DNA of 64,000 bases, from positions 118,990 to 182,989 of the IMG/VR virus record IMGVR_UViG_3300033146_003879. One strand, 5' to 3'. The notes under the pieces are model-generated. The model was not told the DNA's origin and made no database searches. It worked only from the letters and a program-made list of their open reading frames with translations. The DNA comes from a virus. Its lineage: Duplodnaviria > Heunggongvirae > Uroviricota > Caudoviricetes. Below are positions 7,127 through 56,432 of this stretch, piece by piece (the stretch's first letter is position 1; every line of letters begins with the position of its first letter). The position numbers and the translations under genes are program-made.

Positions 7127-7149
7127 TGCATGAATGTATATTTTGTCAA

Positions 7150-7165
7150 CTTCTTATACCATAAT
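7150..7165 (-). promoter_or_regulatory. copy 1 of recurrent promoter-like motif (plus strand cttataccataat; minus strand reads TGGTATAAG, an extended -10)
   Basis: Member of the 14-copy motif family. Oriented so that minus-strand transcription would enter the 5940-7150 non-coding island. Confidence 0.4.
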
Positions 7166-20985: not shown

Positions 20986-21225
20986 AACAACCTCCTGTTT
21001 TTTAACGTGGTTGTCTCCACATTGATATATACTACACAATAAAACCAGAAGTAATGGCTCAGACTACGCTTGCCTAGGCCTGTACGTAACTTCACGAGGT
21101 CTTTCTCCTCGCACACAGACATCTCAACACCTCCTCCTTTGTTGACATACCATACATATTCTTATACCTCAAAAACGCAGTTTTTATATCAAAAAAAGAA
21201 ACCCTGCAACTTAAGTAACAGGGTA

Positions 21226-24907: not shown

Positions 24908-24917
24908 AACGCACCCC

Positions 24918-25274: not shown

Positions 25275-25413
25275 GCCACACCCCCTAAACGTTACCTATA
25301 TTACCAACAGTTAGGTTATCAGTAAACAATAAAGGGTTAAGTATAACACCATCACCCATAACCTTAGCGCCTATACCGCCAACAGAAACCCCAAGCCCTG
25401 TAACTACTTACAG

Positions 25414-29992: not shown

Positions 29993-30367
29993 TTACTGAT
30001 TCTTAATGTATGTCTTGATGACTTCGAGCGGTGCGCCGCCAGAAGACGTAACGTAATAAGACGGGGACCATAATTTCTTGTGCCGTCTTAATTCCGGGTA
30101 TAAAGCTCTGAGCTTTTTGCTTGTTGGCCCCTTAACTGCCTGCACTATAGAGGAGATTGACTCTGTCGAAGGGTATTCAATAAGGAGGTGGACGTGATCT
30201 AAATCGCCGTTACATTCCTCAAGCGTGATCCCCTTCTTCTTGAACGCCTGTCTTGCATAATATGCGAAGTCTCCAAGTATTCTCGGAGAAAGCACCTTTC
30301 TCCTATACTTCGTTACCAATACGAGGTGTGCATGCAAGCTGCTTATGTTTGTTCTTGACTTCCTCAT
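29993..30367 (-). CDS. tnpA: IS200/IS605 Y1 (HUH) transposase TnpA
   Basis: LHAHLVLVTKYRRKVL ... DHVHLLIEYP (HuH) ... LWSPSYYVTS (catalytic Tyr). Confidence 0.85.
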   Translation of the reverse strand: MRKSRTNISSLHAHLVLVTKYRRKVLSPRILGDFAYYARQAFKKKGITLEECNGDLDHVHLLIEYPSTESISSIVQAVKGPTSKKLRALYPELRRHKKLWSPSYYVTSSGGAPLEVIKTYIKNQ

Positions 30368-30389
30368 AACCCTAAGTATACTCTTTTGT

Positions 30390-31508
30390 ATGAAAGTGTC
30401 AAGAGCATATAAATACCGCCTTTACCCTACGCGAGAACAAGAGATTAAGTTGTCTCAGTTCGTTGGAAACAATAGATATCTCTGGAACTTCGTTCTATCC
30501 GCTCTCGAAGGCAAGAAGTGGGACCGATTCGCTGTTTCCAAACAACTTCCTTCACTTAAGTCTGAAATACCATTCCTTAAAGAATCTCCGTCTCAAGCGT
30601 TTCAACAATTGTTAATTGATATGGATGCTGCATTTAAGAGCTTCTTTCGGAAGAAACACGGATATCCGAAGTTTAAGAAACGCGGTATGCACGACTCTTT
30701 TAGAATACCGGTTGTGAAGTCCCCTGAATCTATAAACAAGAATAGCTGCGTCTGGATACCAAAATTGGGTTTTGTGGAACTGCGTTTGTCGCGTGAGGTG
30801 AGAGGAGAAGCGAAGTCTATCACTGTGTCTCGGAGAGCGGGAAAATGGTTTGTCTCAATATTGACGAAAAGCGAGATGCAGGAAACAGGCGGAAAGACAG
30901 GAAATAGTGTAGGAATTGATCTCGGCGTTAAACACTTCGCGACAACGTCGGGCGGAAAGCATATACATGCTCCAGAGGAAAGAGTGCGCTATTTAGAGAA
31001 GAGAATAGAGCGCATGCAGAGGAAAGTCAGTAGAGCGAAGAAAGGATCAAGCAACAGAAGCAAGTTGCGTCTTAAATTAAGTAGACTCCACTTAACTCTC
31101 GCGAATGTGAAAGAAGACTTCTTGCACAAGGTGAGCACACAGTTAATCAAGAACCACGATTTACTTGTGCTCGAAGACCTTGGTGTAAAGGAGATGACAG
31201 AAGCAGGAGCGAGAAAAGCGAAGTTAAATAGAGCAATCTTGCGTCAAGGTTGGTATAAATTTAGGACTTTACTTGAGTATAAGAGTATGTGGTATGGCTG
31301 TGCCGTAGTGTTCGTCCCGCCTCAATTCACGAGTCAGCGCTGTAGCGAATGCGGGAATATAAACGCAGCAAACAGAAAGACACAATCGTCATTTAAATGC
31401 CTTTCGTGTGGCCATACTGAAAACGCTGATATAAACGCAGCTAAGAACATTTTCACCGTCGGGCAGACGGGTAGAGCCTTTGGAGACGCCGCGCTAGCGG
31501 GTCGATGA
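30390..31508 (+). CDS. tnpB: TnpB (OrfB, RuvC-like, RNA-guided nuclease family)
   Basis: N-terminus KVSRAYKYRLYPTREQ, GIDLGVKHFATTSGG (RuvC-I), C-terminal zinc finger CSECG...CLSCGH, DINAAKNI. Confidence 0.85.
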   Translation: MKVSRAYKYRLYPTREQEIKLSQFVGNNRYLWNFVLSALEGKKWDRFAVSKQLPSLKSEIPFLKESPSQAFQQLLIDMDAAFKSFFRKKHGYPKFKKRGMHDSFRIPVVKSPESINKNSCVWIPKLGFVELRLSREVRGEAKSITVSRRAGKWFVSILTKSEMQETGGKTGNSVGIDLGVKHFATTSGGKHIHAPEERVRYLEKRIERMQRKVSRAKKGSSNRSKLRLKLSRLHLTLANVKEDFLHKVSTQLIKNHDLLVLEDLGVKEMTEAGARKAKLNRAILRQGWYKFRTLLEYKSMWYGCAVVFVPPQFTSQRCSECGNINAANRKTQSSFKCLSCGHTENADINAAKNIFTVGQTGRAFGDAALAGR

Positions 31509-31526: not shown

Positions 31527-32180
31527 TCAAGGCCGGGAGGATGTCAAGACGTTGAAACCCATCTCAATCAACTTTACGAGATGTTCTGGGCTGTGCCCGA
31601 CATTAAGTGTATAGGGGCCTCCACCGACAGTGTAATCCAACATAACGCTGGAGTCTCCCTCATTGAAGCGTAGTTTACCAAACTTCGCAATCATGATTCC
31701 TGGGAACCAACTCTCAATAATCTTTTTCTCATGCTCTTTGATGTCGGACAGGAGCCTACTGCCCATTTTAACCCTACAAGGTTCACCGCAGTTTACCATT
31801 CTATCCTCCCCAAATACATCGCATATTTCATACACGATTTGATTACTACCGTTAAACCGAGACACAGGAAGCTTTCTAGCCACCATCTTATCCTGGTTAT
31901 GCCACACAGAACCTCTTGGAGACAGTGCTACAAATCGCGTTTCCCAGTCTTTAACCTTATCAAGGTAGTGTTTATAGTGCTCCGGGGAAATATCATATGA
32001 GATATCAGTTATTTCATTGCTTGCTGCTATATCAGACAGTGCCTGCATAGCGACTTCATGCTGCCCTACATTCCCGACAGGAATATAGATTGGACTAAAG
32101 TGCTTTTTGTCTTCCCAGTCTTTCTGGGAGACTCTCTTAATCGATTCGATTTGTTCTTTGCTGAGACTTTCTTTAACCAC
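31527..32180 (-). CDS. hypothetical protein (217 aa) next to the RNA ligase
   Basis: ORF. No clear phosphoesterase or kinase motifs seen. Confidence 0.4.
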   Translation of the reverse strand: MVKESLSKEQIESIKRVSQKDWEDKKHFSPIYIPVGNVGQHEVAMQALSDIAASNEITDISYDISPEHYKHYLDKVKDWETRFVALSPRGSVWHNQDKMVARKLPVSRFNGSNQIVYEICDVFGEDRMVNCGEPCRVKMGSRLLSDIKEHEKKIIESWFPGIMIAKFGKLRFNEGDSSVMLDYTVGGGPYTLNVGHSPEHLVKLIEMGFNVLTSSRP

Positions 32181-32598
32181 TCTTCTCCTCCCATTTTCTC
32201 AACTGTTTCATCAAACTTCCATCAACATCAAGGCGTCCGTCACCCATGGGATTTCCAAAACTGAACCACCCACCATCGACGGTACGAGTAAATGTTAGCG
32301 GGGTATTTTCTTCATCATCCAGATGACCATATACTAGCACGTCAGTTTCCTTTGCATACAATCCCGAGCACTGGTCAACCTCTTGTTTCCACAGCTCTCT
32401 CAGATCCTTTCGCGCGGTATTAAAGGAAGCAACGGTTTGTATATAGGCCCGGTTGTGCCGGGTCATTTTGACCTTTCCGTCGTCGAAGAAGTCATACTCC
32501 TCCCCTACCAACGGGACAGGCATTAATTTTCTAACTCCCATAGTGTTCCCCTCCATCTCCGTGGTTAGTAACAGCCGCTCTAATACCCTCTGCGACAC
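32173..32598 (-). CDS. hypothetical protein (141 aa); part of it is duplicated at 34156-34400
   Basis: PLVGEEYDFFDDGKVKMT...SGLYAKETDVLVYGHLDDEE recurs in the downstream ORFs. Confidence 0.4.
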   Translation of the reverse strand: MSQRVLERLLLTTEMEGNTMGVRKLMPVPLVGEEYDFFDDGKVKMTRHNRAYIQTVASFNTARKDLRELWKQEVDQCSGLYAKETDVLVYGHLDDEENTPLTFTRTVDGGWFSFGNPMGDGRLDVDGSLMKQLRKWEEKSG

Positions 32599-33511
32599 TT
32601 CCGATAGCTATAACACCATCGATAAGGAGCATGCCGAGATGAATTAGTGTTTTAACGCTATCATGCTGTACCCCAGACACAGGTAAAGAAGGGTTAACCT
32701 CTTTCCCTGACACCGCGAGCTTCCCATCGTCTGCCGCAGAGAATTCAACATCAACAAGAATATCTTTGACACCCTCTCGAACAGAGTCAAGAACAGCAGG
32801 ATCTTTGATAAACAACTCAACATCCTTTCTTGTAGCGGGAACAGGCTCCATATCCCACTCTTCAATGATATTCCTCTCCGGCTTTATCTTAACCATGATA
32901 CGCTTACCACTTCTGGTGAGCATACCAAGAGGCGCCTTCAATACGACACCTTCTGCGGGATACTCTTTGTTCTCCGCAATTAACGACTTGAAGTCGTTGT
33001 TGACCAGGGCATCTGCTTCGGCAAGACTCATGTTTCCGAGAAACGGAACAACAAGAATCCCTATACGGGCCGCAATGTTTTCTATATCTTTTCTCTGCAA
33101 CCACCAGCCCCCTACACGAATATCAAACAGAATGAAGGACACATCTTTCTTTATGTAGTTCCCTCCTTTCTGAATCTTCACACCATACCCTTCTCCATAG
33201 AGACAGACGACCTGTCCACCCTCAAGAGTAAACCCTTTCTTAAGAGTCTCCGGAGTAAACAACTCATGCAGCTTCTTGTCAAGGTGCCCCGGCAAGATAG
33301 CTTTATCCGTCTTACCCCGGATATCGACTTTCTCTCCATCCCAGATAACACGAATGTTCGTGCCGTCTATTTTCTCTGTTGCTTCCCACAGGGCGTTCTC
33401 GAGTACCTCAAATTCAGGCATTGCGTACGCGCCTCTTATGAGAGGCTTATTTTTCATATGCATAGCCCTCTTCCACAAAGAGTTTATCTTTGTATACTTT
33501 CCTCCGTTCAT
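32531..33511 (-). CDS. ATP-dependent RNA ligase, Rnl2-like
   Basis: Motif I EKIDGTN (compare T4 Rnl2 EKIHGTN), motif IV EGVVLK, motif V IMVKIKPE. Start MNGG is preceded by GGAGGGAGAAGG. Confidence 0.7.
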   Translation of the reverse strand: MNGGKYTKINSLWKRAMHMKNKPLIRGAYAMPEFEVLENALWEATEKIDGTNIRVIWDGEKVDIRGKTDKAILPGHLDKKLHELFTPETLKKGFTLEGGQVVCLYGEGYGVKIQKGGNYIKKDVSFILFDIRVGGWWLQRKDIENIAARIGILVVPFLGNMSLAEADALVNNDFKSLIAENKEYPAEGVVLKAPLGMLTRSGKRIMVKIKPERNIIEEWDMEPVPATRKDVELFIKDPAVLDSVREGVKDILVDVEFSAADDGKLAVSGKEVNPSLPVSGVQHDSVKTLIHLGMLLIDGVIAIGSVAEGIRAAVTNHGDGGEHYGS

Positions 33512-33524
33512 CCTTCTCCCTCCT

Positions 33525-33806
33525 CTAAACACTATCAATAAACTTGAGAAGCTCCTCTTTCTTTTTCTTGACCTCTGGAGTCAGTTCCACCTCGTGTCTC
33601 CTGATCCTCGGGAACACACCGTACTCATCTTCATAGATACTATACATTATACCCAGACCTACAGCAGGCTCTACGTATCCAAACAGATGAGAAGGCAGGG
33701 ATAACGTCACTTTCCCAAACCTAACGGAAACGAACTCGTCACTGTACGAAACTATTACACCTGACTTCTCTGCTATCAGGTTAATCATCTGCTTTCCCGT
33801 CCACAA
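33525..33806 (-). CDS. hypothetical protein (93 aa)
   Basis: ORF. Confidence 0.35.
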   Translation of the reverse strand: MWTGKQMINLIAEKSGVIVSYSDEFVSVRFGKVTLSLPSHLFGYVEPAVGLGIMYSIYEDEYGVFPRIRRHEVELTPEVKKKKEELLKFIDSV

Positions 33807-34050: not shown

Positions 34051-34170
34051 GTACTTCTCCTCCTAATAAGATTATTCTGTTCTTCTAAACCCCCGACTGG
34101 ATTGTGAGCTCAATTATCCTCTCCGCTCCTCCTACAGCCACCAATACCTCTAGTACTATTCCTCCCTTAT

Positions 34171-34378
34171 GTCCTTCCTCGCGGTGTTAAAGGAGGTAAC
34201 GGTTTGTATATAGACCTGCCTGAGGCTTGTCATTTTGCCCTCCCCGTCGTCGAAGAAGTCATACTCTTCCCCCACCAACGGGATAGGTTTCCTCATCCTC
34301 AAAGCGTCCGTATACGAACACGTCAGTTTCCTTTGCATACAACCCTGAGCACCGGCCAACCTCTTGTTTCCTCCTGTT
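34171..34378. repeat. about 200-bp duplicated and circularly permuted copy of 32300-32520
   Basis: cgtcgtcgaagaagtcatactc..ccaacggga, cggtttgtatata and cgtcagtttcctttgcatacaa blocks all recur, but in permuted order. Confidence 0.7.
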
Positions 34379-34792
34379 CCGCTCGGGCTTTATTTTACCC
34401 ATCTCCTCTCCGCGAGAAGTGTCTCGGTTCTCTTCTGCCACGAGCGTCACCGTAACATCCATTGGGCCAAGATCACGCAAATAACCACCGGACTCGGGGC
34501 CAGTATTCTTGACAACAAAGAACACTTTTTCCTCCCCTGCTATTTCGATTAGACGCTCTTTCGTTATTTCGATAACACGGAAGCCGGCGTCTACGTAGAC
34601 ATGCGTGACCTGAGGCAGTACATCAACAAGTTCATTATTCCCAGCCCTAAGCATGCGCACTTGCTCTCTCTTTACTTTTAATTCAGATTCGGTCGCCGCG
34701 AGCTCCACGTTAGACTTATTTAACGCGTCTGCAAGAAAAGCAACAAAAGTGGCAGCGATCAGCACTGCGATTACAAATAGGATGTATATCAT
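34259..34792 (-). CDS. hypothetical membrane-anchored coiled-coil protein (carries the duplicated fragment in its C-terminus)
   Basis: N-terminal TM helix MIYILFVIAVLIAATFVAFL and a helical region. C-terminus is SGLYAKETDVFVYGRFEDEE. Confidence 0.4.
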   Translation of the reverse strand: MIYILFVIAVLIAATFVAFLADALNKSNVELAATESELKVKREQVRMLRAGNNELVDVLPQVTHVYVDAGFRVIEITKERLIEIAGEEKVFFVVKNTGPESGGYLRDLGPMDVTVTLVAEENRDTSRGEEMGKIKPERNRRKQEVGRCSGLYAKETDVFVYGRFEDEETYPVGGGRV

Positions 34793-42355: not shown

Positions 42356-42883
42356 CTAATAGTTAAACGAGTCAAGGTGCCACGCCATAACGTTAAGCTC
42401 CTTCTCTGTTATTTTCCCATCCACAGCGCGGAATACACCAGGCATTCCTGTCATAGTATCAAGCATAGAGGGTAGCTCGACGACAATACAGTAGCGTCTG
42501 AACTTATGAGTACGGTGCTCATCTATCCAGGTACTCACACTAACCATATTTCCAGACCCTCCCTTTATGCGCACAACCTCGGCTTTGTACTCCTTAACGA
42601 AGTCAGCTAAGCCATCTTCATCAATCCCTTCCTCAAGGAATATGACAGGGGCAGCTAAATGAGGTCTTAACAACACCTCTCCTTTAGTAAGCTCCTTCAA
42701 CGTAAGTACGCATCTGTTAACGAGGGCAACGCGACTTGTGCACGCAACACCACTAGGGGTTCTCCCGTGGGCGTGCTTGCATTTACCTACTTCACCCTTG
42801 TTGTACACACAAGGGTTTTCTTTACTGTCCTGACATAACAACGACAACGACGCTCGGTTATCTCTTAACTTTTCTTCACACAT
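42356..42883 (-). CDS. hypothetical Cys-rich protein (start MCEEKL after GGAGG)
   Basis: ORF with an internal RBS-supported start. Confidence 0.4.
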   Translation of the reverse strand: MCEEKLRDNRASLSLLCQDSKENPCVYNKGEVGKCKHAHGRTPSGVACTSRVALVNRCVLTLKELTKGEVLLRPHLAAPVIFLEEGIDEDGLADFVKEYKAEVVRIKGGSGNMVSVSTWIDEHRTHKFRRYCIVVELPSMLDTMTGMPGVFRAVDGKITEKELNVMAWHLDSFNY

Positions 42884-42893
42884 CACCACCTCC

Positions 42894-43274
42894 TTAGTTC
42901 CACAAGCTGAGGAAATTTTCCCCAAGCAACTTGAGTCCTTCCTCCACCTTTTCCTTCTCACCTTCCACAGTAAACAATCCTCCTCCCCCTTCCTTGATTA
43001 TCATCTCAAGTGCGACAACAATCTTGTCAAGGTCACTAATAAACTCTGCACTCTGTTCTGCATCTCCAGGGTATGTGTCCCTGAATTCTTTTATTCTCGG
43101 GAGCATGAACTTCGAGAGAGTAAGATCGAGGCTCCACAATTCACTTTCATCAAACCCACGCGCTAGGCGCTGTTCCCTGAACTGCTCCACCCTACCATCA
43201 TCTTCTGATACAGCAGTGAAGTTTACGTTTGGCACCCCGCACTCTTTCGGGTCAAAAATCCTTCTTTCAGACAT
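42894..43274 (-). CDS. hypothetical acidic protein (126 aa)
   Basis: aggaggagg RBS. Preceded by a 500-nt structured leader. Confidence 0.45.
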   Translation of the reverse strand: MSERRIFDPKECGVPNVNFTAVSEDDGRVEQFREQRLARGFDESELWSLDLTLSKFMLPRIKEFRDTYPGDAEQSAEFISDLDKIVVALEMIIKEGGGGLFTVEGEKEKVEEGLKLLGENFLSLWN

Positions 43275-43781
43275 AATAGTAACCTCCTCCTCCTTTTGCT
43301 ATAAAAAATGTGGCTTCCGCCAGTAAAACATCCTGCAGTAGTTAGCAAGACAACGTCACACAGACATCCTCGTGTGGCAATAACGGCTCCCTTATATAGC
43401 AGGGAACTGCAGACGTGAGTGTAGAGCAAAGGGCCACCTTCGCTACGCACACTCACTAATTTTATGCACAGAGTCCATCTTGTGCAACCTCCTATCGCGG
43501 AAGGGTTCGGCCTCACCCGTAGTAGTAAACTCATACACCGGTGAGGAGATATATGAGCCGTAGAAGCATAGCCGTGGAGCCAGGAAGCTATCCCAACTTC
43601 GCACGAACTATAACTTTTACACACGTTGCTTAAGCGTGCAACCTGGCTCCTGCAGGTATAGGGTATGTCCAGTCTTCACTACGGGATAGGACATACAAAC
43701 GTCCCGCAGAGCCCCGTTCTTACACGAGGATTTTACCGTCAGCTAATACGGCTTAATGAATATACATTGATATTCATTCAA

Positions 43782-43797
43782 CTTCTTATACCACATA
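43782..43797 (-). promoter_or_regulatory. recurrent promoter-like motif, copy 5
   Basis: cttataccacatatctaggatttttacact. Confidence 0.4.
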
Positions 43798-43807
43798 TCT
43801 AGGATTT

Positions 43808-46442
<2,635 letters not shown>

Positions 46443-46578
46443 TACCCTCCTCTTTCGTCTCTACCTCAATCTCTACGGGGTTGTGCTCGACAGCCTCCCC
46501 AACAGGAACAGGCTTCTCTTTAAGGAACATCTTAAATACATTAAACATGATTACCTCCAAGGTAAATAAATTATCCAT

Positions 46579-46594
46579 AATCTTATACCATAAA
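46579..46594 (-). promoter_or_regulatory. recurrent promoter-like motif, copy 6 (divergent region; a separate TATAAT + GGAGG serves the + gene)
   Basis: cttataccataaacaccctccTATAATttac. Confidence 0.4.
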
Positions 46595-46633
46595 CACCCT
46601 CCTATAATTTACACAGAATAGATGGAGGGTAAT

Positions 46634-47506
46634 ATGGGAAGCTTTCTTAAGTATGCTAAATTAATGCTCGACATAAATATCGGAGATATTATGTTAACCG
46701 GTCGATTCAAGAATCACCGCGAGGTAGTAAAAACAATGGGTACTGACGAGCTTGGGCAGCCACTGATAAATGGGAAGAAACTACTTGATATGCGCATCGA
46801 GAAGAAACTCCCTTTTGAGAAGAGAAGTAAGAAGACAAAGGAAGAGTCAGGAAAGAGTGTAAAGAAGTTCAGTAAGAAAGCGGACCAAAAGTCAATGGTG
46901 ATAGACGGCGACAAGATACAAGGCGTAGGCATGAGAAGAACACTGCATGACTATCTTGATGAAAAAGGAATTAAAGGCGTTGCTGTTAATGATGCGAAGA
47001 CCGGGAATGTCGAGGTGACTGTAGATGCCCCAACAAAAGACGATGCGGTGCGCGCTCTTGAAGAACTAAAGGTGATCGCAAACAACCGTGTTGGTGAACC
47101 GCTGCGCTACAATATGCCTAAGCGTCCTCTACCGTTACGGGACGCAGTAATAACAAACGAGGACATGGAGCGGTTCAACACAAAGTCATACGAAAGCTTT
47201 CTCCGATCACGTAAGCTTCATCCTGAAATGCGGTTCTCAACAGGTAGACTTCCGCTTGAAGATGTCATAAGGGAAACAGCAGAACGCTATCGACTACAGC
47301 GCGGAGAAGGTGATGTTGCCTTGCAAGGACTCGTCACAGCAAGAGCATTACGGCAACTCCTAAACAAGGAAACACAATACGAATTCATGCGTAGAGAGAA
47401 CCTTGTTCGCAGTAAAGCCGAGGGGTATGCGTTACTCGCTAAGATAAAAGCGATGCGTGAGGCAAATGGAAGAGGAGACGACACCGACTGGCCATCAAAA
47501 AAATAA
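46634..47506 (+). CDS. protein with acylphosphatase-like domain
   Basis: IDGDKIQGVGMRRTLHDYLDEKGIKGVAVNDAKTGNVEVTV matches the acylphosphatase V-x-G-x-VQGV-x-FR signature. GGAGGG RBS. Confidence 0.45.
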   Translation: MGSFLKYAKLMLDINIGDIMLTGRFKNHREVVKTMGTDELGQPLINGKKLLDMRIEKKLPFEKRSKKTKEESGKSVKKFSKKADQKSMVIDGDKIQGVGMRRTLHDYLDEKGIKGVAVNDAKTGNVEVTVDAPTKDDAVRALEELKVIANNRVGEPLRYNMPKRPLPLRDAVITNEDMERFNTKSYESFLRSRKLHPEMRFSTGRLPLEDVIRETAERYRLQRGEGDVALQGLVTARALRQLLNKETQYEFMRRENLVRSKAEGYALLAKIKAMREANGRGDDTDWPSKK

Positions 47507-48016
47507 ATAACGCCACCACCACAGTATGCGGGAATGGGGCACTATCAATGCATAACAACAGCTGTCTTCAGCCAATCGCTCCAAACCGCTACGCCGTGAA
47601 GGCTCGGTGGATTGAGATGTTATGCATTGATAGTTGCACACCAGATTTGATTTTTACTTCCAGTTTTCTCTGGAACCCAAGTTTCACCACTGCCTCCTGT
47701 GTGGATCCCCCGGGGAGCAACTCTTGTTTATCCCGGCGTCGCAGTGCTATCGCGACGGAGCACACCCTCTGTTTTTAAGTGGTATCGGGTGCTCCCTTCC
47801 ACTGGTTATTGATGGCTGTTCGCGCAGCTCGGGATGTGAGTCCCGCCATCTAGGTATGGCAATCGTCACCCTAACCACCCTACTTACCGCGAGGTGGAAG
47901 CGTCTGACAGTTTTCACTGTCGGTCGGGTGCTAACTAACGTGTTCGACCATTACGCTCGCATAGTTTTCCATCTATACGAGTATGACGTATACATCGGGA
48001 GTATACTTCATATCAT

Positions 48017-48032
48017 ATTCTTATACCACAGA
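48017..48032 (-). promoter_or_regulatory. recurrent promoter-like motif, copy 7
   Basis: catattcttataccacagaatacgattttttgcagg. Confidence 0.45.
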
Positions 48033-48083
48033 ATACGATTTTTTGCAGGGTATTTAGGGCGGATCTATCTGGAACCCGGATCG

Positions 48084-48136
48084 AAAAAAATATACTTACT
48101 CCCAGGGGACACCGCTCGTCAGCGGCTACCCCTGGT
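48084..48136 (-). terminator. rho-independent terminator (ccaggggacaccgctcgtcagcggctacccctgg plus U7 on minus)
   Basis: Long GC hairpin. Minus strand continues GAGUAAGUAUAUUUUUUUCG. Confidence 0.55.
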
Positions 48137-48378
48137 TTCAGGCACCCCTCTACAACTAGGCTCTAGCCTAGACCAATACCCTTGAGGGGAAAGTATATTG
48201 GTCACCGCGTTTCTTTTTACCCATGAGGCTCGCGGCTAGCCTCTGCGGATGACCTTTCTCAAGGCTCCGCTTCCTTTATTCTCTTCATGATCTCTGCACC
48301 TCCCAGTGCTTGCCCGGTGACCAACCCGGATAATGGCCAATAGTATCCCGGCTGCCTGGCAGGGATACTTCATATCAT
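48084..48378 (-). ncRNA. candidate about 290-nt structured ncRNA bounded by a promoter (48379-48394) and a terminator (48084-48136)
   Basis: No ORF with an RBS. GC-rich, with multiple hairpins. Discrete promoter-to-terminator unit on the minus strand. Confidence 0.3.
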
Positions 48379-48394
48379 GTTCTTATACCATAGA
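48379..48394 (-). promoter_or_regulatory. recurrent promoter-like motif, copy 8
   Basis: catgttcttataccatagaatcacagtttttgcagg. Confidence 0.45.
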
Positions 48395-48605
48395 ATCACA
48401 GTTTTTGCAGGTGCCTATCTGGAAGCCGAAAAAAGAAACGCACTGCTGAGTACTACGCAGTTTGTTCCTTTTACCACGTGGCGTTCGTGGATTTGTGCAT
48501 CGTCTTTTCTATGTACTACGGGGCGGATTGCAGTTCCCCTCATGTCTATTTATATTTTGTTTTACATCAGCGCCAACACGGCGAGCGCTGATAGACGGCC
48601 AAGGC

Positions 48606-49115
48606 TCAACCCACAGGAGGAGTAGAGACGATAGGTCCGTAGTAGACCCACACCTCATGATATGAGCCCACTATGCTCACACCATACTCCACACCATACT
48701 CCTTGCTAAGGTCCGCCTTAATCTCCTCGAGATCAGGGTACCCATTCACAGGAGCATCTGTGCAGTGATCTGCTACTTGGTAGTAGATGTCACCCTCTAC
48801 ATCGTAGAGTTTGCCACTTACCTCGCAGATCTTGAGATCAGACAGACTGATGTCTTTGGCATGAAGGTCCACCAGAAGTGCGTATGCACCTCTCGAGTAC
48901 TTCAATGCGTCAGCATCAGATGTCCCTTTATCAACAATACCCTTATCACGGGCACAGTCGAGTATAAGGGCAGCACCGATACGGTGCATGTCCGCTAGGC
49001 CCTCATGCAGAATCTTTGCTGCACGAACACCCAGGATCTCATTCTTGTAGTCACGTACCGTTGCGACGTACTCCCAAACGGAGCGTCGAACGATAGAACC
49101 ACAAGCCTCCACCAT
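48606..49115 (-). CDS. hypothetical protein (169 aa)
   Basis: ORF. Confidence 0.45.
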   Translation of the reverse strand: MVEACGSIVRRSVWEYVATVRDYKNEILGVRAAKILHEGLADMHRIGAALILDCARDKGIVDKGTSDADALKYSRGAYALLVDLHAKDISLSDLKICEVSGKLYDVEGDIYYQVADHCTDAPVNGYPDLEEIKADLSKEYGVEYGVSIVGSYHEVWVYYGPIVSTPPVG

Positions 49116-49232
49116 CTTTATAGACAGTATGTTATCAACACACCTCCTACAAAGAGAGAGCCCACCTCAATCAGGGCAGCACGCATACACCTATACACGT
49201 ACCAGCGATCTACACAATGTATAGACTACCAT

Positions 49233-49248
49233 ATTCTTATACCACAGA
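49233..49248 (-). promoter_or_regulatory. recurrent promoter-like motif, copy 9
   Basis: catattcttataccacagaaaac. Confidence 0.45.
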
Positions 49249-49518
49249 AAACAAGTTCTTACGAAAAAAGAGAAGGGCACATATTATAAACACATGCCCT
49301 TTGTCGACCTACCAGATCTTCCCGGTATTTCTATCCCGCCCCGGTCGGCGGTAAGCAGTGTGTGACCCCCGAAGGGGTCTCTTACTCTTCTTTGTCGCGG
49401 CTTGCCTTGCGGGCGAATTTCTTCGCTCCGCGTACAATCCAATAGCCCGCCACGTAGGCTATTGCAAGGTCTACTGCGACCACAGCCGCTTTTACAACAC
49501 TTCCCATAAAATTCTCCC

Positions 49519-50367
49519 CTAGGTTTGTGGCAACGCTTCCGTCACCAGTTTTTTGTACTCCGATTCATCAGACGGGATGAAGTTCAACAAGAATCCGCCC
49601 TTATGGGCGAACACAAGGTTCTTCGGTCTTGACTTCACAAAGTCGAGACCAGCGTCCTCTCCTTGCCGGGTTCGGAACAGGGTGCGTGTCTTGCCGGCGA
49701 GGTCACGAGGATCAAACGAGTATGTTGCAACTGCATCATACTTGTTGATTAACTCCCCTTGGGCCGCGTTCACGACTGCTGTCTCAAGCCCTGCGGCTCT
49801 CGGGTTAGACAACAATTCAATGACCGCATGCCCACCGACGGTAACAACAGCGTGGTTCTCCTCCAACCACGCCCCTGCCTCCTTTACGGAGCGCATGAAC
49901 TCGAGGCGATCTTTCACGATCTCCCCTACAAGCCCTGCGACATCCGTCGGCGCATGCTCGAAGAGTCGGATAAGCCCGAACTCGAGCGTGAGCAGCGGAG
50001 CCACTCTGTTCCCGCCAAACTCCGCGTCCAACGAACGGAGGCCGCCGTTATCTTGAATCTCGACTAGCTTCAAGAACGGACCCCATACGGAGTCCTTGAG
50101 AAGATCTGGAGCAAACGCCTGGGAGATCAGAGTCGCCGCGCATTCGCCTGCAACAGCAGCCTCCTTTTGATGATGATCAAACAGACGGACTCCGTCATAC
50201 TGACCACCTACGTCGAGGATATAATCCTCGTCGCCGGTGGGGTTATTCGTACGAATTACTTCATACGAACCTTGGTACCACCCTTTTGCCGCGATGAGTA
50301 TGCCTGCGGCAAGCAGGTCATCCTTGTGTGCGGCCCCGGCATGGACCGCAATAATTATTTTCTTCAT
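49519..50367 (-). CDS. putative metal-dependent hydrolase (H-x-G-x-x-H-x-DD N-terminal motif plus DHHQ); family assignment tentative (MYG1/UPF0160-like?)
   Basis: IIAVHAGAAHKDDLLAAGIL ... LFDHHQ. GGAGG RBS. Confidence 0.3.
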   Translation of the reverse strand: MKKIIIAVHAGAAHKDDLLAAGILIAAKGWYQGSYEVIRTNNPTGDEDYILDVGGQYDGVRLFDHHQKEAAVAGECAATLISQAFAPDLLKDSVWGPFLKLVEIQDNGGLRSLDAEFGGNRVAPLLTLEFGLIRLFEHAPTDVAGLVGEIVKDRLEFMRSVKEAGAWLEENHAVVTVGGHAVIELLSNPRAAGLETAVVNAAQGELINKYDAVATYSFDPRDLAGKTRTLFRTRQGEDAGLDFVKSRPKNLVFAHKGGFLLNFIPSDESEYKKLVTEALPQT

Positions 50368-50460
50368 AATAGTACCTCCTAAGTACTTTCCCGGAGACTA
50401 ATCCGGATTAAGTCTTATCAGCACGCAGACTACTGCGCGTACCGAAACATATACATTCAC

Positions 50461-50476
50461 ATTCTTATACCACAGA
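50461..50476 (-). promoter_or_regulatory. recurrent promoter-like motif, copy 10
   Basis: cacattcttataccacagaatgtgagttcttgcat. Confidence 0.45.
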
Positions 50477-50548
50477 ATGTGAGTTCTTGCATAAAAAATA
50501 AACGCACAAAGAGCAGCCACCAACCCCGAAGGGTTGGCAGCGGAGATA

Positions 50549-51463
50549 TCACATGCATCCTGAGTTGTAAATAAACTCATTGAATGCAAGGCTGTCTAAC
50601 TCATCAGAAAGGGCTTGCACAGAAATGGCTACTTGTACTTGCGCCTTATTCATGTTTGCAATGTTTCCTCGGACGAACGCTGCGAGAATACCACGCAGGC
50701 TGTGTCCCCTACTTCTTATTGAGGACGCATACTTACGTACAGCTTTTATGCGCTTCATCTGACGTTGCTGTACGATTCCCGTTTTCATACCCTTGCCATT
50801 TTTGTCATAGGCAAGAACTTCTTCTCGACCGGTATATGACTTCGCAAGGGTCGGTAATACTTCTTCGACCTGCTCGACAGAGACATGGATAGGAGCCCAC
50901 ATGTGAGCCAACCACGTCAGTGAACCATCAGGCATAGTTACAATAATATCATGCACTGGATCAGCGTGCATCTGCGGGGTGTCTGTTAGAATGACAATAG
51001 TGTACACCCCCTCCTCCTCAACTTCGTGATTCTTCAGCACGATGCCGAGCTCCGCATCCGTACCAACCTCATTGAGGTTGACTCGTATAATGTCTCCTAC
51101 TTCACAGTAGGGATTTCCTGCAGTAAACCCAGCAATGGAGTAAGTAAGGTCTGATAGTTTAACCCACTCCTTACCGAGTTGCTCCAGCATGTCATCAGTA
51201 CCGCCCGCGAGCGATATCTCCTCCGAAATGGCGCGCACGTCCTTCATCATAGTACGTGCTTGCTCTCGCATATCTCTCTTCTCCGCATCAGAGCTTCCGA
51301 GAGCGTTATCGAGGTCGCTCCTGAACTCATGCACTGCGTGGGACAACCCACCAATTATCTCAGAGAGACTATCTACGTCTCCTGAAGATGCGGTTACCTT
51401 CTCTTTGTACTCTTTTATCACCACTCTCTCCCGTGTAGTTGCTACCGAGCACATGAAGCTCAA
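50549..51463 (-). CDS. hypothetical protein (304 aa)
   Basis: ORF. Confidence 0.45.
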   Translation of the reverse strand: MSFMCSVATTRERVVIKEYKEKVTASSGDVDSLSEIIGGLSHAVHEFRSDLDNALGSSDAEKRDMREQARTMMKDVRAISEEISLAGGTDDMLEQLGKEWVKLSDLTYSIAGFTAGNPYCEVGDIIRVNLNEVGTDAELGIVLKNHEVEEEGVYTIVILTDTPQMHADPVHDIIVTMPDGSLTWLAHMWAPIHVSVEQVEEVLPTLAKSYTGREEVLAYDKNGKGMKTGIVQQRQMKRIKAVRKYASSIRSRGHSLRGILAAFVRGNIANMNKAQVQVAISVQALSDELDSLAFNEFIYNSGCM

Positions 51464-51695
51464 TAATTACAAATAATACCGTAGGTGTCATGAACGCCAC
51501 CATAACCCAGAACGTACCTCCCGTTCCGAGCGCACTCGCCTGCCACGCATACGACGTGATAAGAGCCCCTGCCATAATACCAGACAGGGAATCAACTACT
51601 CCAGGCCTGATGAATAGATAGTTCTTAATAGTACGAAACAGTGTGTACTGTGCAGCAAATACTAATGCTACGGACACCCATACACAACTAGACAT
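51369..51695 (-). CDS. small polytopic membrane protein
   Basis: About 3 hydrophobic helices (VWVSVALVFAAQYTLF, GIMAGALITSYAW, FWVMVAFMTPTVLFVIIEL). Confidence 0.35.
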   Translation of the reverse strand: MSSCVWVSVALVFAAQYTLFRTIKNYLFIRPGVVDSLSGIMAGALITSYAWQASALGTGGTFWVMVAFMTPTVLFVIIELHVLGSNYTGESGDKRVQREGNRIFRRRR

Positions 51696-52311
51696 TTTGC
51701 ACCCCCTTAATTTCAGGATATGTTTCTTCAATCGCCTCTTCGTAATATCGCTCTACAGCCATCACAACACGCTCACCTCGGTTAAGCAATCGGCTTACGT
51801 CAAGTACGCGTTTAGCAATATCGTCAGCAGCTTCCCTCGCCTTTGCTGAGTACCTATCTCCGTGTACTCCTGCATAGGCTAGAGAATACAGCCTATGCGT
51901 TAAGACTAACGCCTGGGCAGCACCTACTAGATCCATGTCGAAGTCTTCTGCTCGTCTTGCCAGACCAACAACGGAATTCAACATATCACCCGGTCTCCCG
52001 GTCCGCAGTTCATCCCACACTGCCGCATACTTATTATTACGCATACCGCCTCGAGTAACTTCCCCACGCAAGGCTGTATCCCGATACAAAAGAACGTATG
52101 CATGGAGTAACGTATACTCTCGCAGCTGCCTGGTATTTATGAATATACCAAACATAGTGTCCGAAACACTACGCGCTTTTATGGCTGCGTCCATGTTGTT
52201 GTGTGATATGTACCACTGCCATTTGTGCAGTAGCACGAGGTCATAAGCCACAAGGATAGCGGCAGTTAGTATCTGCAGCGCTATCATTATGAAGATAGTT
52301 TTGACGTCCAT
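51688..52311 (-). CDS. hypothetical membrane-anchored protein (207 aa)
   Basis: N-terminal helix IFIMIALQILTAAILVAY. AAGGAGGG RBS. Confidence 0.45.
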   Translation of the reverse strand: MDVKTIFIMIALQILTAAILVAYDLVLLHKWQWYISHNNMDAAIKARSVSDTMFGIFINTRQLREYTLLHAYVLLYRDTALRGEVTRGGMRNNKYAAVWDELRTGRPGDMLNSVVGLARRAEDFDMDLVGAAQALVLTHRLYSLAYAGVHGDRYSAKAREAADDIAKRVLDVSRLLNRGERVVMAVERYYEEAIEETYPEIKGVQNV

Positions 52312-52505
52312 TACGCCGCCCTCCTTTATAAAAATTAAAGTACCTCATGCAGGTTGACCCTCTCCTGGTTGGGAGGGGTCGGTGTCCTGCACTAACCGTA
52401 TTAACTGACGGCTAACAGCGCGATAGATTAACTGCTATCACTGGTGATGCTTTCGCTGACGGAGTCACTTACCCGGGCCCTTTACGTCTAGCCGTAGACG
52501 GGTTA

Positions 52506-52676
52506 TTATTTTACATCCAGTATGCTCTGGAGTGTTGGGCGAACGCCCCGGGCATGCTGAGCAGCATGGTAGATCCCACGACCTTTAGGAAGGCCGTACC
52601 TATTACGTACAACAGGTAAGCTGTTAGAAGTGGGGCTTGCACGCGGGGTTTCCCCCGTCATAAGTTCATAATACAT
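52506..52676 (-). CDS. small ORF (56 aa) with a strong RBS inside a long leader
   Basis: GGAGG + 7 nt + ATG. Leader and start are near-identical over about 50 nt to those of gene 49519..50367. Falls below the 60-aa ORF-track cutoff. Confidence 0.3.
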   Translation of the reverse strand: MYYELMTGETPRASPTSNSLPVVRNRYGLPKGRGIYHAAQHARGVRPTLQSILDVK

Positions 52677-52790
52677 AATAGTACCTCCTAAGTACCTTCC
52701 CGGCGACCAACCCGGATAATAGTCATCGCACCAACCACACGGTCAATACTTATAGGAGGTATGCTATTACATGCGCAAATCTCCTATCAT

Positions 52791-52806
52791 ATTCTTATAC
52801 CACAGA
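52791..52806 (-). promoter_or_regulatory. recurrent promoter-like motif, copy 11
   Basis: catattcttataccacagaatctgaatttttacact. Confidence 0.45.
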
Positions 52807-52848
52807 ATCTGAATTTTTACACTGATTCTAGGCACCTATCTGGAAGCC

Positions 52849-52880
52849 GAAAAAAGAAACCCCCAGCGTTTAGCTAGGGG
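52849..52880 (-). terminator. rho-independent terminator after gene 52889..53263
   Basis: Hairpin cccccagc-gttta-gctagggg, followed on minus by UUUCUUUUUUCGG. Confidence 0.5.
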
Positions 52881-52888
52881 TGTGCATG

Positions 52889-53263
52889 TTATTTCTTTGC
52901 GGTGTCAGGCATCAGTCTGAACCTCCGCATGGTGGCTTTTGCTTTCCTGAGCTCTCCACGAACTATGTGCTCGTAGAACCGCAGACGTTTCCAATCTGTC
53001 TTGTTTTCAAACTCTTTTAGTGAGGCACGCAAACCTTCAGCGTCACGTTTTATGTCCGCTATGTACTTTTCCTTGTCCTCCTCAAGTACCGAGACATGCG
53101 TCGCGTCAGCTATGAGCTGTAGAGCAACGGCGTTCAGCCGTCCCGCCTCTTCTATCAGGTCATCCGCCTTCTTCTCGAGCGCTTCATAGTTAACGCCCTC
53201 CCACGCTTGTTTTTCGTTACTACTCATAATCTCCTCCACCTTCATTAATAATATACCTGTCAT
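52889..53263 (-). CDS. hypothetical helical protein (124 aa)
   Basis: ORF. Confidence 0.45.
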   Translation of the reverse strand: MTGILLMKVEEIMSSNEKQAWEGVNYEALEKKADDLIEEAGRLNAVALQLIADATHVSVLEEDKEKYIADIKRDAEGLRASLKEFENKTDWKRLRFYEHIVRGELRKAKATMRRFRLMPDTAKK

Positions 53264-53513
53264 CCAGCCACTGGATTAGCTCCGCATTCTCGTTACACAC
53301 TTCGAGCTCACCTCGGGCAATTGCGAACCCTGCAATCCCATCGGGAGTTATAAGTGTATACCCATTAATGTCGACCTCCCAGTTCTCAGGGTTACTCAAA
53401 GGTCTGTCCGAGATACTGCTGCTTGTTGGTCCAATGTACTCACGGCTGACGTCCTCGATGACTTGTACTCCGGCATCTACAGCACGATCAACGTTAAACA
53501 TAACTACTTTCAT
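53220..53513 (-). CDS. hypothetical protein (alternative longer start at 53630)
   Basis: MKVVMFNVD start is preceded by GGAGG. The ORF track extends the ORF to 53630. Confidence 0.4.
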   Translation of the reverse strand: MKVVMFNVDRAVDAGVQVIEDVSREYIGPTSSSISDRPLSNPENWEVDINGYTLITPDGIAGFAIARGELEVCNENAELIQWLDDRYIINEGGGDYE

Positions 53514-54041
53514 AACTACCTCCTGCGGTATGAAAAATAATATCTTAGTAATGTATTTTGTTAAGAAACATAAGGGGCGCCGCGCAGGTTTCTGTACAGA
53601 TCCGAAAGGATCCATGCTCCACCTGCGCATGATTCAGTTTCCTTCGCCGGAACGCACGTTCCGGTTCAGATACGTACAGCATGTCGGCCGAACCACACCG
53701 TTTGCTGCACGAGAAGTAAGTAGAGGTGCACCCCTAATTACTTCTTTGATTTTTCAGAGCTCGCATTACATTCCTGCTCCCTAGGGTTTACTCCCTGACC
53801 TACCGCCCGATTGTTTTTTATAGCAGTATTCACCGGTAGGTGCCCTCTGCAACCGCACTCCAAGGTACGGAGGTCCTTAATTTATATTGCGGTTCGACCC
53901 TGCCCGCTAACTCTGTTGCCCTCTGAGAGGTGTCGGCTGAGTTTACATGCGCCTTGTGTGTGCTTGGTGGTTAACCTAACGTCTCGCCCAGACGCTACGT
54001 ATCACTACGTAGTAAAGAATCACGTGAAGATACTTTATCTA

Positions 54042-54057
54042 ACTCTTATACCACAAA
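54042..54057 (-). promoter_or_regulatory. recurrent promoter-like motif, copy 12 (a TATAAT for the + gene follows at about 54073)
   Basis: ctaactcttataccacaaacctcagatttttcacactacTATAAT. Confidence 0.4.
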
Positions 54058-54114
54058 CCTCAGATTTTTCACACTACTATAATTACCATGTACCACTCGA
54101 TGGAGGGAGCCGTG

Positions 54115-54594
54115 GATAAGGAAGCAAAGAAGCTAACGACGTACGCTCGTAAACACATAGCAGACAAGAACTTCGCAGGTAAAAAGAAATCATATCCTAT
54201 ACATGATATATCCCATGCAAGATCTGCTCTATCTTACGGATCACGTTTCCTGCCGAAGGATGAGTACAGTAAGCTGCGGACACGCGTTCACAAGAAGTAT
54301 CCAAGTCTCGCTAAAAAGAGTAATCTCACAAGCTACGTTGGGAGCATGTTGAAGGAATCTGCGTATGACCCGCTCCCACAAGAGCTCGGTCACTTCGTGG
54401 GGAGAAAGGCAGCCCGCGATCAAGATGCTCGATACAGTTACGGCGGAGCAGCGACAGCAGCTCTCGGAACAGCTGCTCTTACAAGTCTCTTCGGTGAAAA
54501 CAAGTGGAAGGCACTGCGTAACGGAACGCTCGCTATCTTCCCAGGAATGTTTGCAGGTGAAGCTGCGAAGCATTATGTAAATAACAAAAAATAG
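54115..54594 (+). CDS. hypothetical protein (GTG start after GGAGGG; ORF track extends to 54088)
   Basis: ORF with an RBS. Confidence 0.4.
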   Translation, partial: DKEAKKLTTYARKHIADKNFAGKKKSYPIHDISHARSALSYGSRFLPKDEYSKLRTRVHKKYPSLAKKSNLTSYVGSMLKESAYDPLPQELGHFVGRKAARDQDARYSYGGAATAALGTAALTSLFGENKWKALRNGTLAIFPGMFAGEAAKHYVNNKK

Positions 54595-54787
54595 TACAAA
54601 CAGGCTGCATAATTCCAAAGGGAGACCCCAAGGCCCTCCTTATTTCAAGTTACTTATAATTCATCGAGCTATAACTGCGCGCCCTCTGTCTAGTGCCTTT
54701 GATATCTGGGTCAAAAGGCGCTGCTGCATGTTATCCCACACTATTTAATAAATTACATCTGCGCAGGATGAAGTGAACACAAGAAAA

Positions 54788-54848
54788 AATAAAACAACAA
54801 AACAACAAAACAACAAAGCAATAAAGCAATAAAGCAATAAAACAACAT
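54788..54848. repeat. short tandem repeats (aacaaaac)x3 followed by (caataaag)x3
   Basis: aaaacaacaaaacaacaaaacaacaaagcaataaagcaataaagcaataaaa, in a 1.1-kb non-coding stretch. Confidence 0.8.
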
Positions 54849-55648
54849 CGGCGCAGTCCCCTGAGTGTTCGGGGTACGTAGCGCCATGGTAGCATTTTTA
54901 ACCTTTCGGCCATTACACACACCCACATTTCTGTAGGTAGCCACCAGAAACACAGCAGATAAGTTCTGCCGCAAACTCCTGCGCTGCTCATCATAGGTTT
55001 CCTCTGCTAGCAACCCCTTTGGTAGGGTTCAACGACTCCCGCCGTTTATTGTCCAACATTTTCCGCCTCACAGTTCACCTTGTGGGATTCCTGCGTCATC
55101 ATTTTTCAGATGAATAAGTTTCTTTTCAGAATCAGCGCCTACACCGCTTTTTACCATTTGTTTTCTTGATTAATAGTCAAGTAGTTGATTTCGAGTCGCC
55201 GGTGTAGCCGATAACCTAGATGCCTTTTGAGCACCCGTGCGGTCCTACGCCTCGTTGTTTCAAGTTAGACCGGGTAAGGTCCTGAAACGGGAATCTTTTC
55301 TTGAACCGCGTGATTTCGCACGTGGCCCAAAAGTCCTTACGTAAAGCCCTTGCTCCTCAGCTCGAACAATACACAGTGCAACCCCCTATTGCCTCTCAGC
55401 TCACCTACCATACTACTGATAGGCATTACCACTTCTGCGCCGCCAGTTGGCCTTGCATTCCCGTGATAACGGTAGTTGTACTCCTCTCTACGGTCACGGT
55501 TTAACCCGCGCGCATCCGTGGTTCACTTTCCACTAAATGCCTTTTAGGCTCATCACTGAGCTTACCCTAACGACAAGAAGGCTGCCGTCGCAAAGATATA
55601 CGGTAGATGTTTCTAACTAGGTTAGCATACAAACATATACCTTTGCAA

Positions 55649-55664
55649 CTACTTATACCAGGTT
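55649..55664 (-). promoter_or_regulatory. recurrent promoter-like motif, copy 13 (divergent variant: cttataccaggttttactgtgagttttacact)
   Basis: Oriented towards the 54600-55645 non-coding stretch. Confidence 0.35.
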
Positions 55665-55847
55665 TTACTGTGAGTTTTACACTTATTTCTCAGCTAGTCT
55701 CTGTTTCTGTCTCGAAGTTAGATTTAATACCACTTAGCCATCTATCCCGTGTCTTTGTAGACACCATAAAATCGTGATACCAATCTGCTGCAGTATCGTT
55801 GCCCCACGGCTTCGGTCCCCATGTTCCCATATTAAACCTCCAGCTTA

Positions 55848-56432
55848 CTAATTGTAATTGTACCCAATCCAACGGGCAATAGTGATAAGTGAAGCACGCT
55901 TCACCTTGCCGTGATCATCAACGTAATCCGGCTCTAGCTTAGGAAGCAGCCTTTCAAGGTCTTCTCTATTTCTACTTACGTGCACTGAGTCAACATCCCG
56001 CATAACGTAGCCAAAGTAGTCATCAACTATTGTATAAAATACTTTTGCCGCCGTAAATTTTATATTTGATATTATCCCAGTATGAATGCCAAACTTCAAG
56101 TTACTATGCTCATTCAAGTTATCTGCCATAGGTATGTAATTCACGCTCTCGCCTAGATTCAGGTTGCTTATGAATGTAGGTCTCACCTCATCAGGCGGAC
56201 GCTCGTTAAGTAACTCCATTGAACGCTGGTATAGAGGTCCAAGCATGTACCCGCCCTCGTCAACAAGTGATGCTTGGGGGAGATCTTCGCTGAATAGTAC
56301 TGACGTGATAGGTCCTGTCGCCGCCTTCCCGCTTCCGTTATTCTTTGTGCGAACAATGTCGCCGATAGCAACTTTAGAAGAGAACATCTCTTCGGCAAAC
56401 TTTAAGAGTCTGTTAGTCATCACTTCCCCCAT
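55848..56432 (-). CDS. hypothetical protein, paralogue family C member 1
   Basis: N-terminal TNRLLKFAEEMFSSKVAIGD is shared with the next two ORFs. Confidence 0.45.
   Translation of the reverse strand: MGEVMTNRLLKFAEEMFSSKVAIGDIVRTKNNGSGKAATGPITSVLFSEDLPQASLVDEGGYMLGPLYQRSMELLNERPPDEVRPTFISNLNLGESVNYIPMADNLNEHSNLKFGIHTGIISNIKFTAAKVFYTIVDDYFGYVMRDVDSVHVSRNREDLERLLPKLEPDYVDDHGKVKRASLITIARWIGYNYN

Follow-up and report, generated by a model that had tools for sequence, protein, structure and literature searches.

We describe a 533-nucleotide (nt) non-coding region that may encode a self-contained structured RNA. The region lies on the minus strand of a 64,000-nt stretch of viral DNA (hereafter the window; Caudoviricetes, IMG/VR record IMGVR_UViG_3300033146_003879, positions 118,990 to 182,989). 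It occupies positions 43275-43807 of the window, between the stop codon of an NAD-dependent DNA ligase gene, which is its 5' neighbour, and the ATG (43274) of a gene for a protein of 126 amino acids (aa), which is its 3' neighbour. The region is non-coding, is headed by a promoter motif belonging to a repeated family, and folds more stably than both its shuffled versions and the background of the genome, and no expression platform was detected in it. Tentatively, with a probability of about 0.4, we interpret it as an RNA that is co-transcribed with the downstream operon, is perhaps processed from it, and acts as RNA in the manner of the large phage RNA GOLLD.

Under this interpretation, a long non-coding RNA would be made from the minus strand by its own sigma-70-type extended -10 promoter (43795-43784), with read-through from the ligase gene as a probable second source of the transcript. 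The RNA would begin with two protective 5' hairpins and continue into a multi-helix domain of ~366 nt closed by a helix of 10 base pairs (bp), next to which would come a plain spacer of ~90 nt, at whose end a very strong ribosome-binding site would serve the 126-aa gene. The domain would be made together with the downstream mRNA, possibly being cut out of it, and would act as RNA, as the GOLLD-like RNA of the same genome presumably does. We infer transcription, the long-range closing helix (P1), any processing and the action in trans.

Promoter motif and coding potential of the region

A sequence-only reading of the window had described a GC-rich, structured leader of ~500 nt, free of open reading frames (ORFs), between a copy of a promoter motif and the 126-aa gene, and its coordinates and anatomy proved right. 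The ligase gene occupies 43808-45796 on the minus strand (stop codon TAA at 43810-43808); according to the protein database and a scan for ribosome-binding sites, its start lies at 45766, giving a protein of 652 aa. The promoter elements at the head of the region are the following.

43784..43795, minus strand: extended -10 promoter motif TGTGGTATAAGA (TGn + TATAAG), member of a repeated family
43805..43812, minus strand: -35-like element TGTAAAAA, recognised by its sequence, 9 nt upstream of the extended -10

The motif is clearly overrepresented: with one mismatch allowed, the pattern TCTTATACCAYA has 15 matches in the window against 0.7 expected, and all except one are oriented for minus-strand transcription, the same way as the genes. 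In the alignment of the copies, TG(C/T)AAAAA recurs at identical spacing in several other promoters. The hexamer, the -35-like element at a fixed distance from it and the repetition of both mark a putative sigma-70-type extended -10 promoter, from which transcription would start at about 43777. Since the TAA of the ligase gene lies inside the -35-like element, transcripts of the ligase operon probably read through into the region as well. Most of the strong promoter copies have a hairpin near the transcript start, and the sequences of these hairpins differ.

The absence of ORFs claimed for the region was borne out by three analyses. In all six frames TAA, TAG and TGA occur mixed, so that stop-codon recoding is no explanation. 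Codon usage was scored as a log-likelihood ratio (LLR) per codon trained on 22 long genes of the window, on which scale in-frame gene segments reach 0.256 +/- 0.054 and off-frame segments -0.384 +/- 0.114; the 133-aa ORF at 43223-43624 scores -0.18, and the smaller ORFs of the region score -0.17 to -0.02. None of the ORFs of the region has a significant Pfam or PHROG match. A hidden gene or a gene with recoded stops was thus rejected, the stop census, the codon-usage scores and the family scans all being negative. An upstream leader peptide was also considered: an AGGAGG-N9-ATG arrangement opens an 11-codon frame at 43478, which is not significant, because this pattern followed by a short frame occurs ~18 times on the minus strand, with ~0.14 expected per 500 nt.

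The GC content is 47.0% for the whole region and 51.1% for its structured core, compared with 45.5% across the window and 36-44% in ordinary intergenic spacers. The description of the region as GC-rich therefore holds relative to the spacers and not relative to the window as a whole.

Predicted fold of the minus-strand RNA

The minus-strand RNA from 43780 to 43275 has a minimum free energy (MFE) of -184 kcal/mol, against -154.4 +/- 5.6 kcal/mol in dinucleotide shuffles (z = -5.28). As a genome-internal control, the z-score was calculated for 64 minus-strand windows of 500 nt, placed every 1 kb. The control window 43301-43800 (z = -5.0) is the second most structured of the 64, after 6301-6800 (z = -7.3); the control windows mostly fall between +2 and -3, and the most structured among the coding ones reach about -4. 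The region was accordingly called structured with good reason. Its predicted elements, from the 5' end, are listed below.

43778-43755, minus strand: hairpin H0, AAUGAAUAU/AUAUUCAUU, pair probability 0.95
43752-43735, minus strand: hairpin H1, GCCGU/ACGGU, pair probability 0.50
43366..43731, minus strand: core structured domain, 366 nt, MFE -148.8 kcal/mol, z = -5.61
43731-43722 with 43375-43366, minus strand: P1, putative long-range helix of 10 bp, AUCCUCGUGU with ACACGAGGAU, enclosing 346 nt, pair probability 0.63
43645..43713, minus strand: P2, long hairpin, pair probabilities 0.84-1.00, local z = -3.18
43642-43625, minus strand: P3, small hairpin of the predicted fold
43560..43620, minus strand: P4, near-continuous irregular hairpin of ~25 bp with a 5-nt loop, pair probabilities 0.69-0.99, local z = -3.99
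43559-43528 (element 43511..43559), minus strand: P5, 12-bp hairpin of the predicted fold
43486-43465, minus strand: P7, small hairpin of the predicted fold
43415..43456, minus strand: P8, 18-bp hairpin GUGAGUGUG.G.AGCGAAGG / CCUUUGCU.C.UACACUCAC, pair probability 0.99, local z = -4.76
43386..43407, minus strand: P9, 7-bp hairpin GUUCCCU/AGGGAGC with an 8-nt loop, pair probability 0.92, local z = -3.62

The fold of the core is comparatively well defined, its ensemble diversity and positional entropy being lower than in ~95 of 100 shuffles. Moreover, the stability is distributed along the RNA: five sub-hairpins (P2, P4, P8, P9 and the 5' hairpins) are each significant when folded alone, with z between -2.7 and -4.8, the two 5'-terminal hairpins (43735..43778) giving z = -2.67. 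P8 (43456-43415; local z = -4.8) is the long imperfect stem that had been quoted as an example from the sequence, and it is a real feature of the fold. P2 comprises 19 bp; a pair of stacked stems at its base is followed by an internal loop of 6x6 nt, above which stands an 8-bp stem, GUAUGUCC/GGACAUAC.

The loop of P5, CCUCACC, is perfectly complementary to GGUGAGG (43517-43511), so that either a pseudoknot or a competing hairpin could form; the prediction for this piece in isolation favours the alternative pairing, and by our own estimate a 7-nt match of this kind is no rarer than chance. Self-complementary loops (AGCU, GCUUAAGC and UAUAUA) were considered as evidence for multimerisation and rejected, since by our estimate there are no more of them than expected by chance. 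The sequence CTGCAG occurs three times in the region and is only mildly enriched across the window.

Other structured segments, relatives and genomic setting

The genome carries further long structured segments behind copies of the same promoter. A permissive Rfam scan of 46400-56000 gave a match to the full GOLLD model (RF02032) at 54858-55252 on the minus strand, with 63.3 bits and E = 6.6e-15, which is below the gathering score of 150. The match lies 11 kb from the region, inside a segment (54600-55645) that the sequence-only reading had named as promoter-headed. The promoter variant TGGTATAAGT at 55660-55651 precedes it, and with its 5' part and a U-rich tail the GOLLD-like RNA spans ~55642-54785, or ~860 nt; the tail is built of 8-nt repeats (54783-54837, plus-strand numbering).

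The second segment, 47500-48012 on the minus strand, is ~500 nt long, has its promoter at 48030-48019, and shows z = -5.34 and 51% GC. There is no plausible minus-strand gene behind it, and it runs into the end of the convergent plus-strand gene 46622-47506; a plus-strand ORF of 183 aa (47634-48185) scores as non-coding. The third segment, 5960-7150 on the minus strand, is non-coding, ~1.15 kb long, and has its promoter at 7163-7152. It contains the most structured stretch of the window (6301-6800) and six palindromes NNCNGATAAYRTCNGNN spaced ~150-285 nt apart (GATAAYRTC has 8 matches vs 0.4 expected), ends in a clear intrinsic terminator at ~5998-5967, and gives no Rfam match at E <= 1. Two other segments named in the sequence-only reading are weaker (52312-52786, z = -3.2; 53631-54037, z = -1.9). 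All the structured segments have ~50% GC, raised like that of the core. The GOLLD-like RNA and the segments 47500-48012 and 5960-7150 suggest that large stand-alone RNAs are a habit of this genome.

The segments had been said to match in architecture. This is true of the promoter and the 5' hairpin, which are common to them, and does not extend to any other sequence or motif: blastn (word size 7), nhmmer and shared k-mers find the promoter only, so that neither homology among the segments nor paralogy of the region with any of them is supported. The palindrome GATAAYRTC is likewise absent from 43275-43807.

In addition, a repeated regulatory cassette occurs at 48305-48446, 50346-50497 and 52655-52867. 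TTTCTTTTTTCGGCTTCCAGATAGG lies upstream of two promoters, and a hairpin CCGGGTTGGTCRCCGGG is found in three places just before the ribosome-binding site (AGGAGGTACTATTATG); the cassette may be a shared binding site for a protein or a shared processing site.

Searches for relatives of the region were made at the level of RNA families, nucleotide sequence and neighbouring proteins. With Rfam 15 at gathering thresholds, the transfer-messenger RNA (tmRNA) was the only hit in the whole window. Scanning 43100-43950 with cmscan at E <= 10 returned three chance hits and no GOLLD, ROOL, OLE, intron, riboswitch, T-box or ribozyme, and the raiA, RNase P and 6S covariance models of Rfam 15 gave no match for the region. 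Nor did blastn of the region against phage records. The 20-mers taken from P8 and P4 have no exact match in the metagenome, viral or genome collections, which evidently lack the source contig too. Searches with the promoter pattern returned 6 + 3 loci, which are chance hits, none having protein similarity to the window.

The first two genes of the downstream operon are the following.

42894..43274, minus strand: 126-aa gene, first gene of a minus-strand operon, coding score 0.228
42359-42883, minus strand: 175-aa orphan gene after the 126-aa gene, with no homologue besides itself

The 126-aa protein matches phrog_11543, a family of unknown function, and has no match in GenBank phages. Its AlphaFold model is a helical bundle (predicted local distance difference test score, pLDDT, 78), and the one significant match to its fold (BFVD, E = 6e-6) is to an uncharacterised protein of a phage. 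The nearest non-self homologue, P0002, is 51% identical and lies in an unrelated 4-kb contig. Among the five homologue-bearing contigs inspected (L001-L005), identity is 43-47% over part of the protein in L001-L004 and 51% in L005; the genes there are tightly packed or have a 105-nt AT-rich spacer upstream, the upstream ORFs having been read only in L001 and L003. A split gene or an intron was considered because the N-terminus of P0002 extends 54 aa further, but nothing resembling this extension was found by tblastn anywhere in the window. Each of the three flanking proteins (126 aa, 175 aa and the ligase) is alone in its cluster. For the ligase, the next-best homologues have <= 49% identity, the two contigs inspected being bacterial gene neighbourhoods, and identity to GenBank phages is <= 41%.

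No virion hallmark protein was recognised in the window, and the designation as a phage is for this reason drawn from gene organisation, from PHROG matches of HNH, RNA-ligase and transposase type, from the tmRNA and from the GOLLD-like RNA. The tmRNA gene is located at 24159-24499 on the minus strand (Rfam, 173.6 bits; tag peptide AKTELIAA by ARAGORN), and tRNA genes are found nowhere in the window. A 79-nt direct repeat, 85% identical, lies just upstream of the tmRNA region (24905-24983 vs 25272-25350). Genes for nucleic-acid repair or processing stand near the structured RNAs (32531-33538, 49519-50367, 26216-27079 and 43808-45796) and encode an RNA-ligase-like protein (phrog_548), a MYG1-like exonuclease (PF03690), a radical SAM protein and the NAD-dependent DNA ligase.

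Two adjacent direct repeats of 126 nt and 84 nt, 82-83% identical, recur ~1.8-2 kb apart (32307-32520 vs 34162-34371). They are situated at the overlapping ends of the ORFs 32173-32598 and 31527-32180, a place immediately downstream of the RNA-ligase-like gene (32531-33538), and at the 3' end of the gene 34259-34792, which points to duplication of a gene segment. Inside the gene 20164-21039, 39-nt units form a tandem array (20525-20782). A 387-aa transposase (30345-31508, plus strand; phrog_506, E = 5e-108) is encoded on the strand opposite to its neighbours and, by its size, could be of the TnpB type (IS200/IS605). The large proteins of 1585, 1604, 863 and 621 aa match no Pfam or PHROG family.

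Competing explanations and known systems

Several points weigh against reading the region as a self-contained RNA. All evidence for structure is thermodynamic prediction on a single sequence, and for this reason we regard the RNA as a good candidate and not as a discovery. No homologue of the RNA segment was found in the collections searched, and its presumed sister RNAs have no sequence or motif in common with it. The pair probability of P1 is only 0.63, so the region could be a string of independent hairpins. The plus strand of the region also folds well (z = -4.61), and because both strands fold, the fold alone proves neither which strand is functional nor that the function belongs to RNA and not to DNA. 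Finally, no strong terminator separates the domain from the 126-aa gene, which makes the domain formally a 5' leader and puts it in the usual place of a cis-regulator.

The explanation that survives best beside the self-contained RNA, although we consider it unlikely, is indeed a cis-regulatory leader, in which elongation or translation of the operon would be controlled through the binding of a ligand, of a protein from phage or host, or of RNA polymerase (processive antitermination as with HK022 put, or leaders of the lambda nut type) to the domain. The elements that bear on it are located in the 3' part of the region.

43275..43365, minus strand: 3' spacer of 91 nt, no significant structure (z = -0.74)
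43321-43303, minus strand: weak GGC-GGAA-GCC hairpin followed by U6, too short to rely on as a terminator
43293-43283, minus strand: triple Shine-Dalgarno sequence GGAGGAGGAGG, 8 nt before the ATG of the 126-aa gene

The region lies directly between a promoter and a gene, and the terminator scan found nothing convincing there, only two weak candidates with 3 G-C pairs. Some alternative pairings would suit a switch: the 3' strand of P1 can pair weakly with a downstream UGUGUG (43376-43357), GUGAC..UCUU can pair with the Shine-Dalgarno region, and CUCCUC in the P5 loop is, on reading the sequence, complementary to GAGGAG of the ribosome-binding site. However, the 3' 91 nt, which include the proposed masking helix, are no more stable than shuffles, and the pair probability of this helix is ~0.4. 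The unpaired probability is 0.28-0.38 for the ribosome-binding site and 0.69-0.75 for the start codon, which is ordinary for this genome and falls inside the spread shown by 28 further genes in the window (0.10-0.85 for the site). The domain is also several-fold larger than known riboswitch aptamers and has no Rfam match even at E <= 10. Each of the five homologues of the downstream gene either is preceded by a short unstructured stretch or stands in a tightly packed array, and the element recurs upstream of none of them. An expression platform, defined as a terminator/antiterminator pair or a site-masking helix above chance, was not found at the locus. Given the lack of both an expression platform and an association with a gene family, the region is not read as a switch for the downstream gene, and the earlier suggestion that such leaders may act as riboregulators is not supported here.

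A second, quite unlikely explanation is that the region is an element of RNA processing or stability, where RNase III-type sites and nuclease barriers would cut the ligase message off from the downstream one and determine the half-life of the latter. By a structural criterion, P4 (~25 bp) and P2 (19 bp, interrupted by a symmetric internal loop) resemble phage RNase III sites in size and shape. Transcripts of the ligase must enter the region, given the position of its stop codon inside the -35 element, and the hairpins after most strong promoters suggest that protection of 5' ends matters in the host. Yet one or two hairpins would be enough for this purpose, and other promoter junctions of this genome manage with leaders of 30-110 nt. 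The ~366-nt domain with at least seven helices, its closing helix and its raised GC content would be left unexplained.

The comparison of strands bears on the last alternative, that the region has no RNA function. The minus-strand fold has a free-energy advantage of 21 kcal/mol over the plus-strand fold, and the shuffles likewise differ (-154 vs -132 kcal/mol); the difference is therefore due to base composition and not to selection, and strand asymmetry was rejected as proof of selection at the RNA level. There are 21 G-U pairs in the minus-strand fold vs 9 in the plus-strand fold, and the minus-strand fold mirrored onto the plus strand reaches only -151 kcal/mol. This excess fits an RNA made from the transcribed strand, without proving it. 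A decayed gene or spacer with chance palindromes, or a DNA element, for instance a signal for single-strand initiation or for replication or inverted repeats for protein binding, would agree with the similar z-scores of both strands (-5.3 and -4.6), by which most helices are Watson-Crick palindromes at the DNA level, and with the absence of conservation data, but is very unlikely in view of a z near -5 far outside the genome background (coding windows at most about -4), several individually significant hairpins, GC content raised as in the GOLLD-like and other structured segments, the position right behind a promoter, in the transcribed orientation, the G-U pairs on that strand, the lack of any detectable remnant of the longer N-terminus of P0002 or of another protein, and the lack of a GC-skew turning point at the region.

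The self-contained RNA can also be stated in a more far-reaching form, which we hold to be possible and yet doubtful. In this form, the region would be the first representative of a new class of trans-acting, large "ornate" RNAs in phages, maybe assembling as GOLLD and ROOL do. It would also be one of at least four long structured RNAs (~55642-54785, 47500-48012, 5960-7150 and the present one) expressed from one promoter family of an orphan 183-kb element as a co-regulated set.

Among known systems, the RNase III sites of the T7 early region and the lambda N leader are single hairpins of ~50-70 nt. The region resembles them in having irregular hairpins of ~20-25 bp with internal loops in a transcribed spacer between genes, early ones in T7 and lambda, and differs in combining at least seven helices in a domain of ~366 nt. 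Riboswitches, T-boxes and antitermination leaders (put, EAR) are likewise structured RNAs between a promoter and the first gene of an operon. Unlike them, the region has no recognisable aptamer and no significant expression platform, is much larger, and is not conserved upstream of homologous genes.

Candidate structured RNAs of phages were previously collected from IMG/VR, where they were defined by covariation in at least three loci and have a median length of ~65 nt, an average of 67 nt and a range of 29-151 nt (PMC10690425). The region is similar in being an unannotated structured element located in a phage intergenic region upstream of a gene; it is ~5 times longer and unique. Measured against such typical elements, the size is unusual, and the remark that a leader of ~500 nt is uncommon for a phage is well founded (PMC10690425).

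ROOL (RF03087) and the other large "ornate" RNAs, such as OLE and raiA, are ~350-650 nt long, have many helices and are associated with phages (PMC12286853). The region belongs to the same size class and shares the many helices and the phage association, whereas those classes are defined by covariation across many members and the region is one member without a match to any model. GOLLD is encoded by phages and prophages, has no known function and forms RNA-only cages; its reported size matches the ~860 nt of the GOLLD-like RNA in the window (PMC12286853). The region is GOLLD-like in being large, highly structured and multi-helix with raised GC content, and a GOLLD-like RNA stands 11 kb away behind a variant of the same promoter. 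It differs in giving no covariance-model match at E <= 10, in having about half the size of GOLLD, and in having neither a U-rich tail or terminator of its own nor tRNAs nearby, with a gene following directly. As no known family fits, the region, if real, would represent a new class within the large structured phage RNAs.

GOLLD and ROOL, large structured phage RNAs, are among the most striking RNAs that have so far been without a known function. If the interpretation proposed here is true, a single promoter family in one genome drives expression not only of a GOLLD-like RNA but also of several unrelated RNAs of comparable size; such RNAs would seem to work as a set and would provide structural biologists with new large folds. 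The most interesting aspect is thus collective: one orphan element combines a tmRNA and a GOLLD-like RNA with at least three further putative long structured transcripts.

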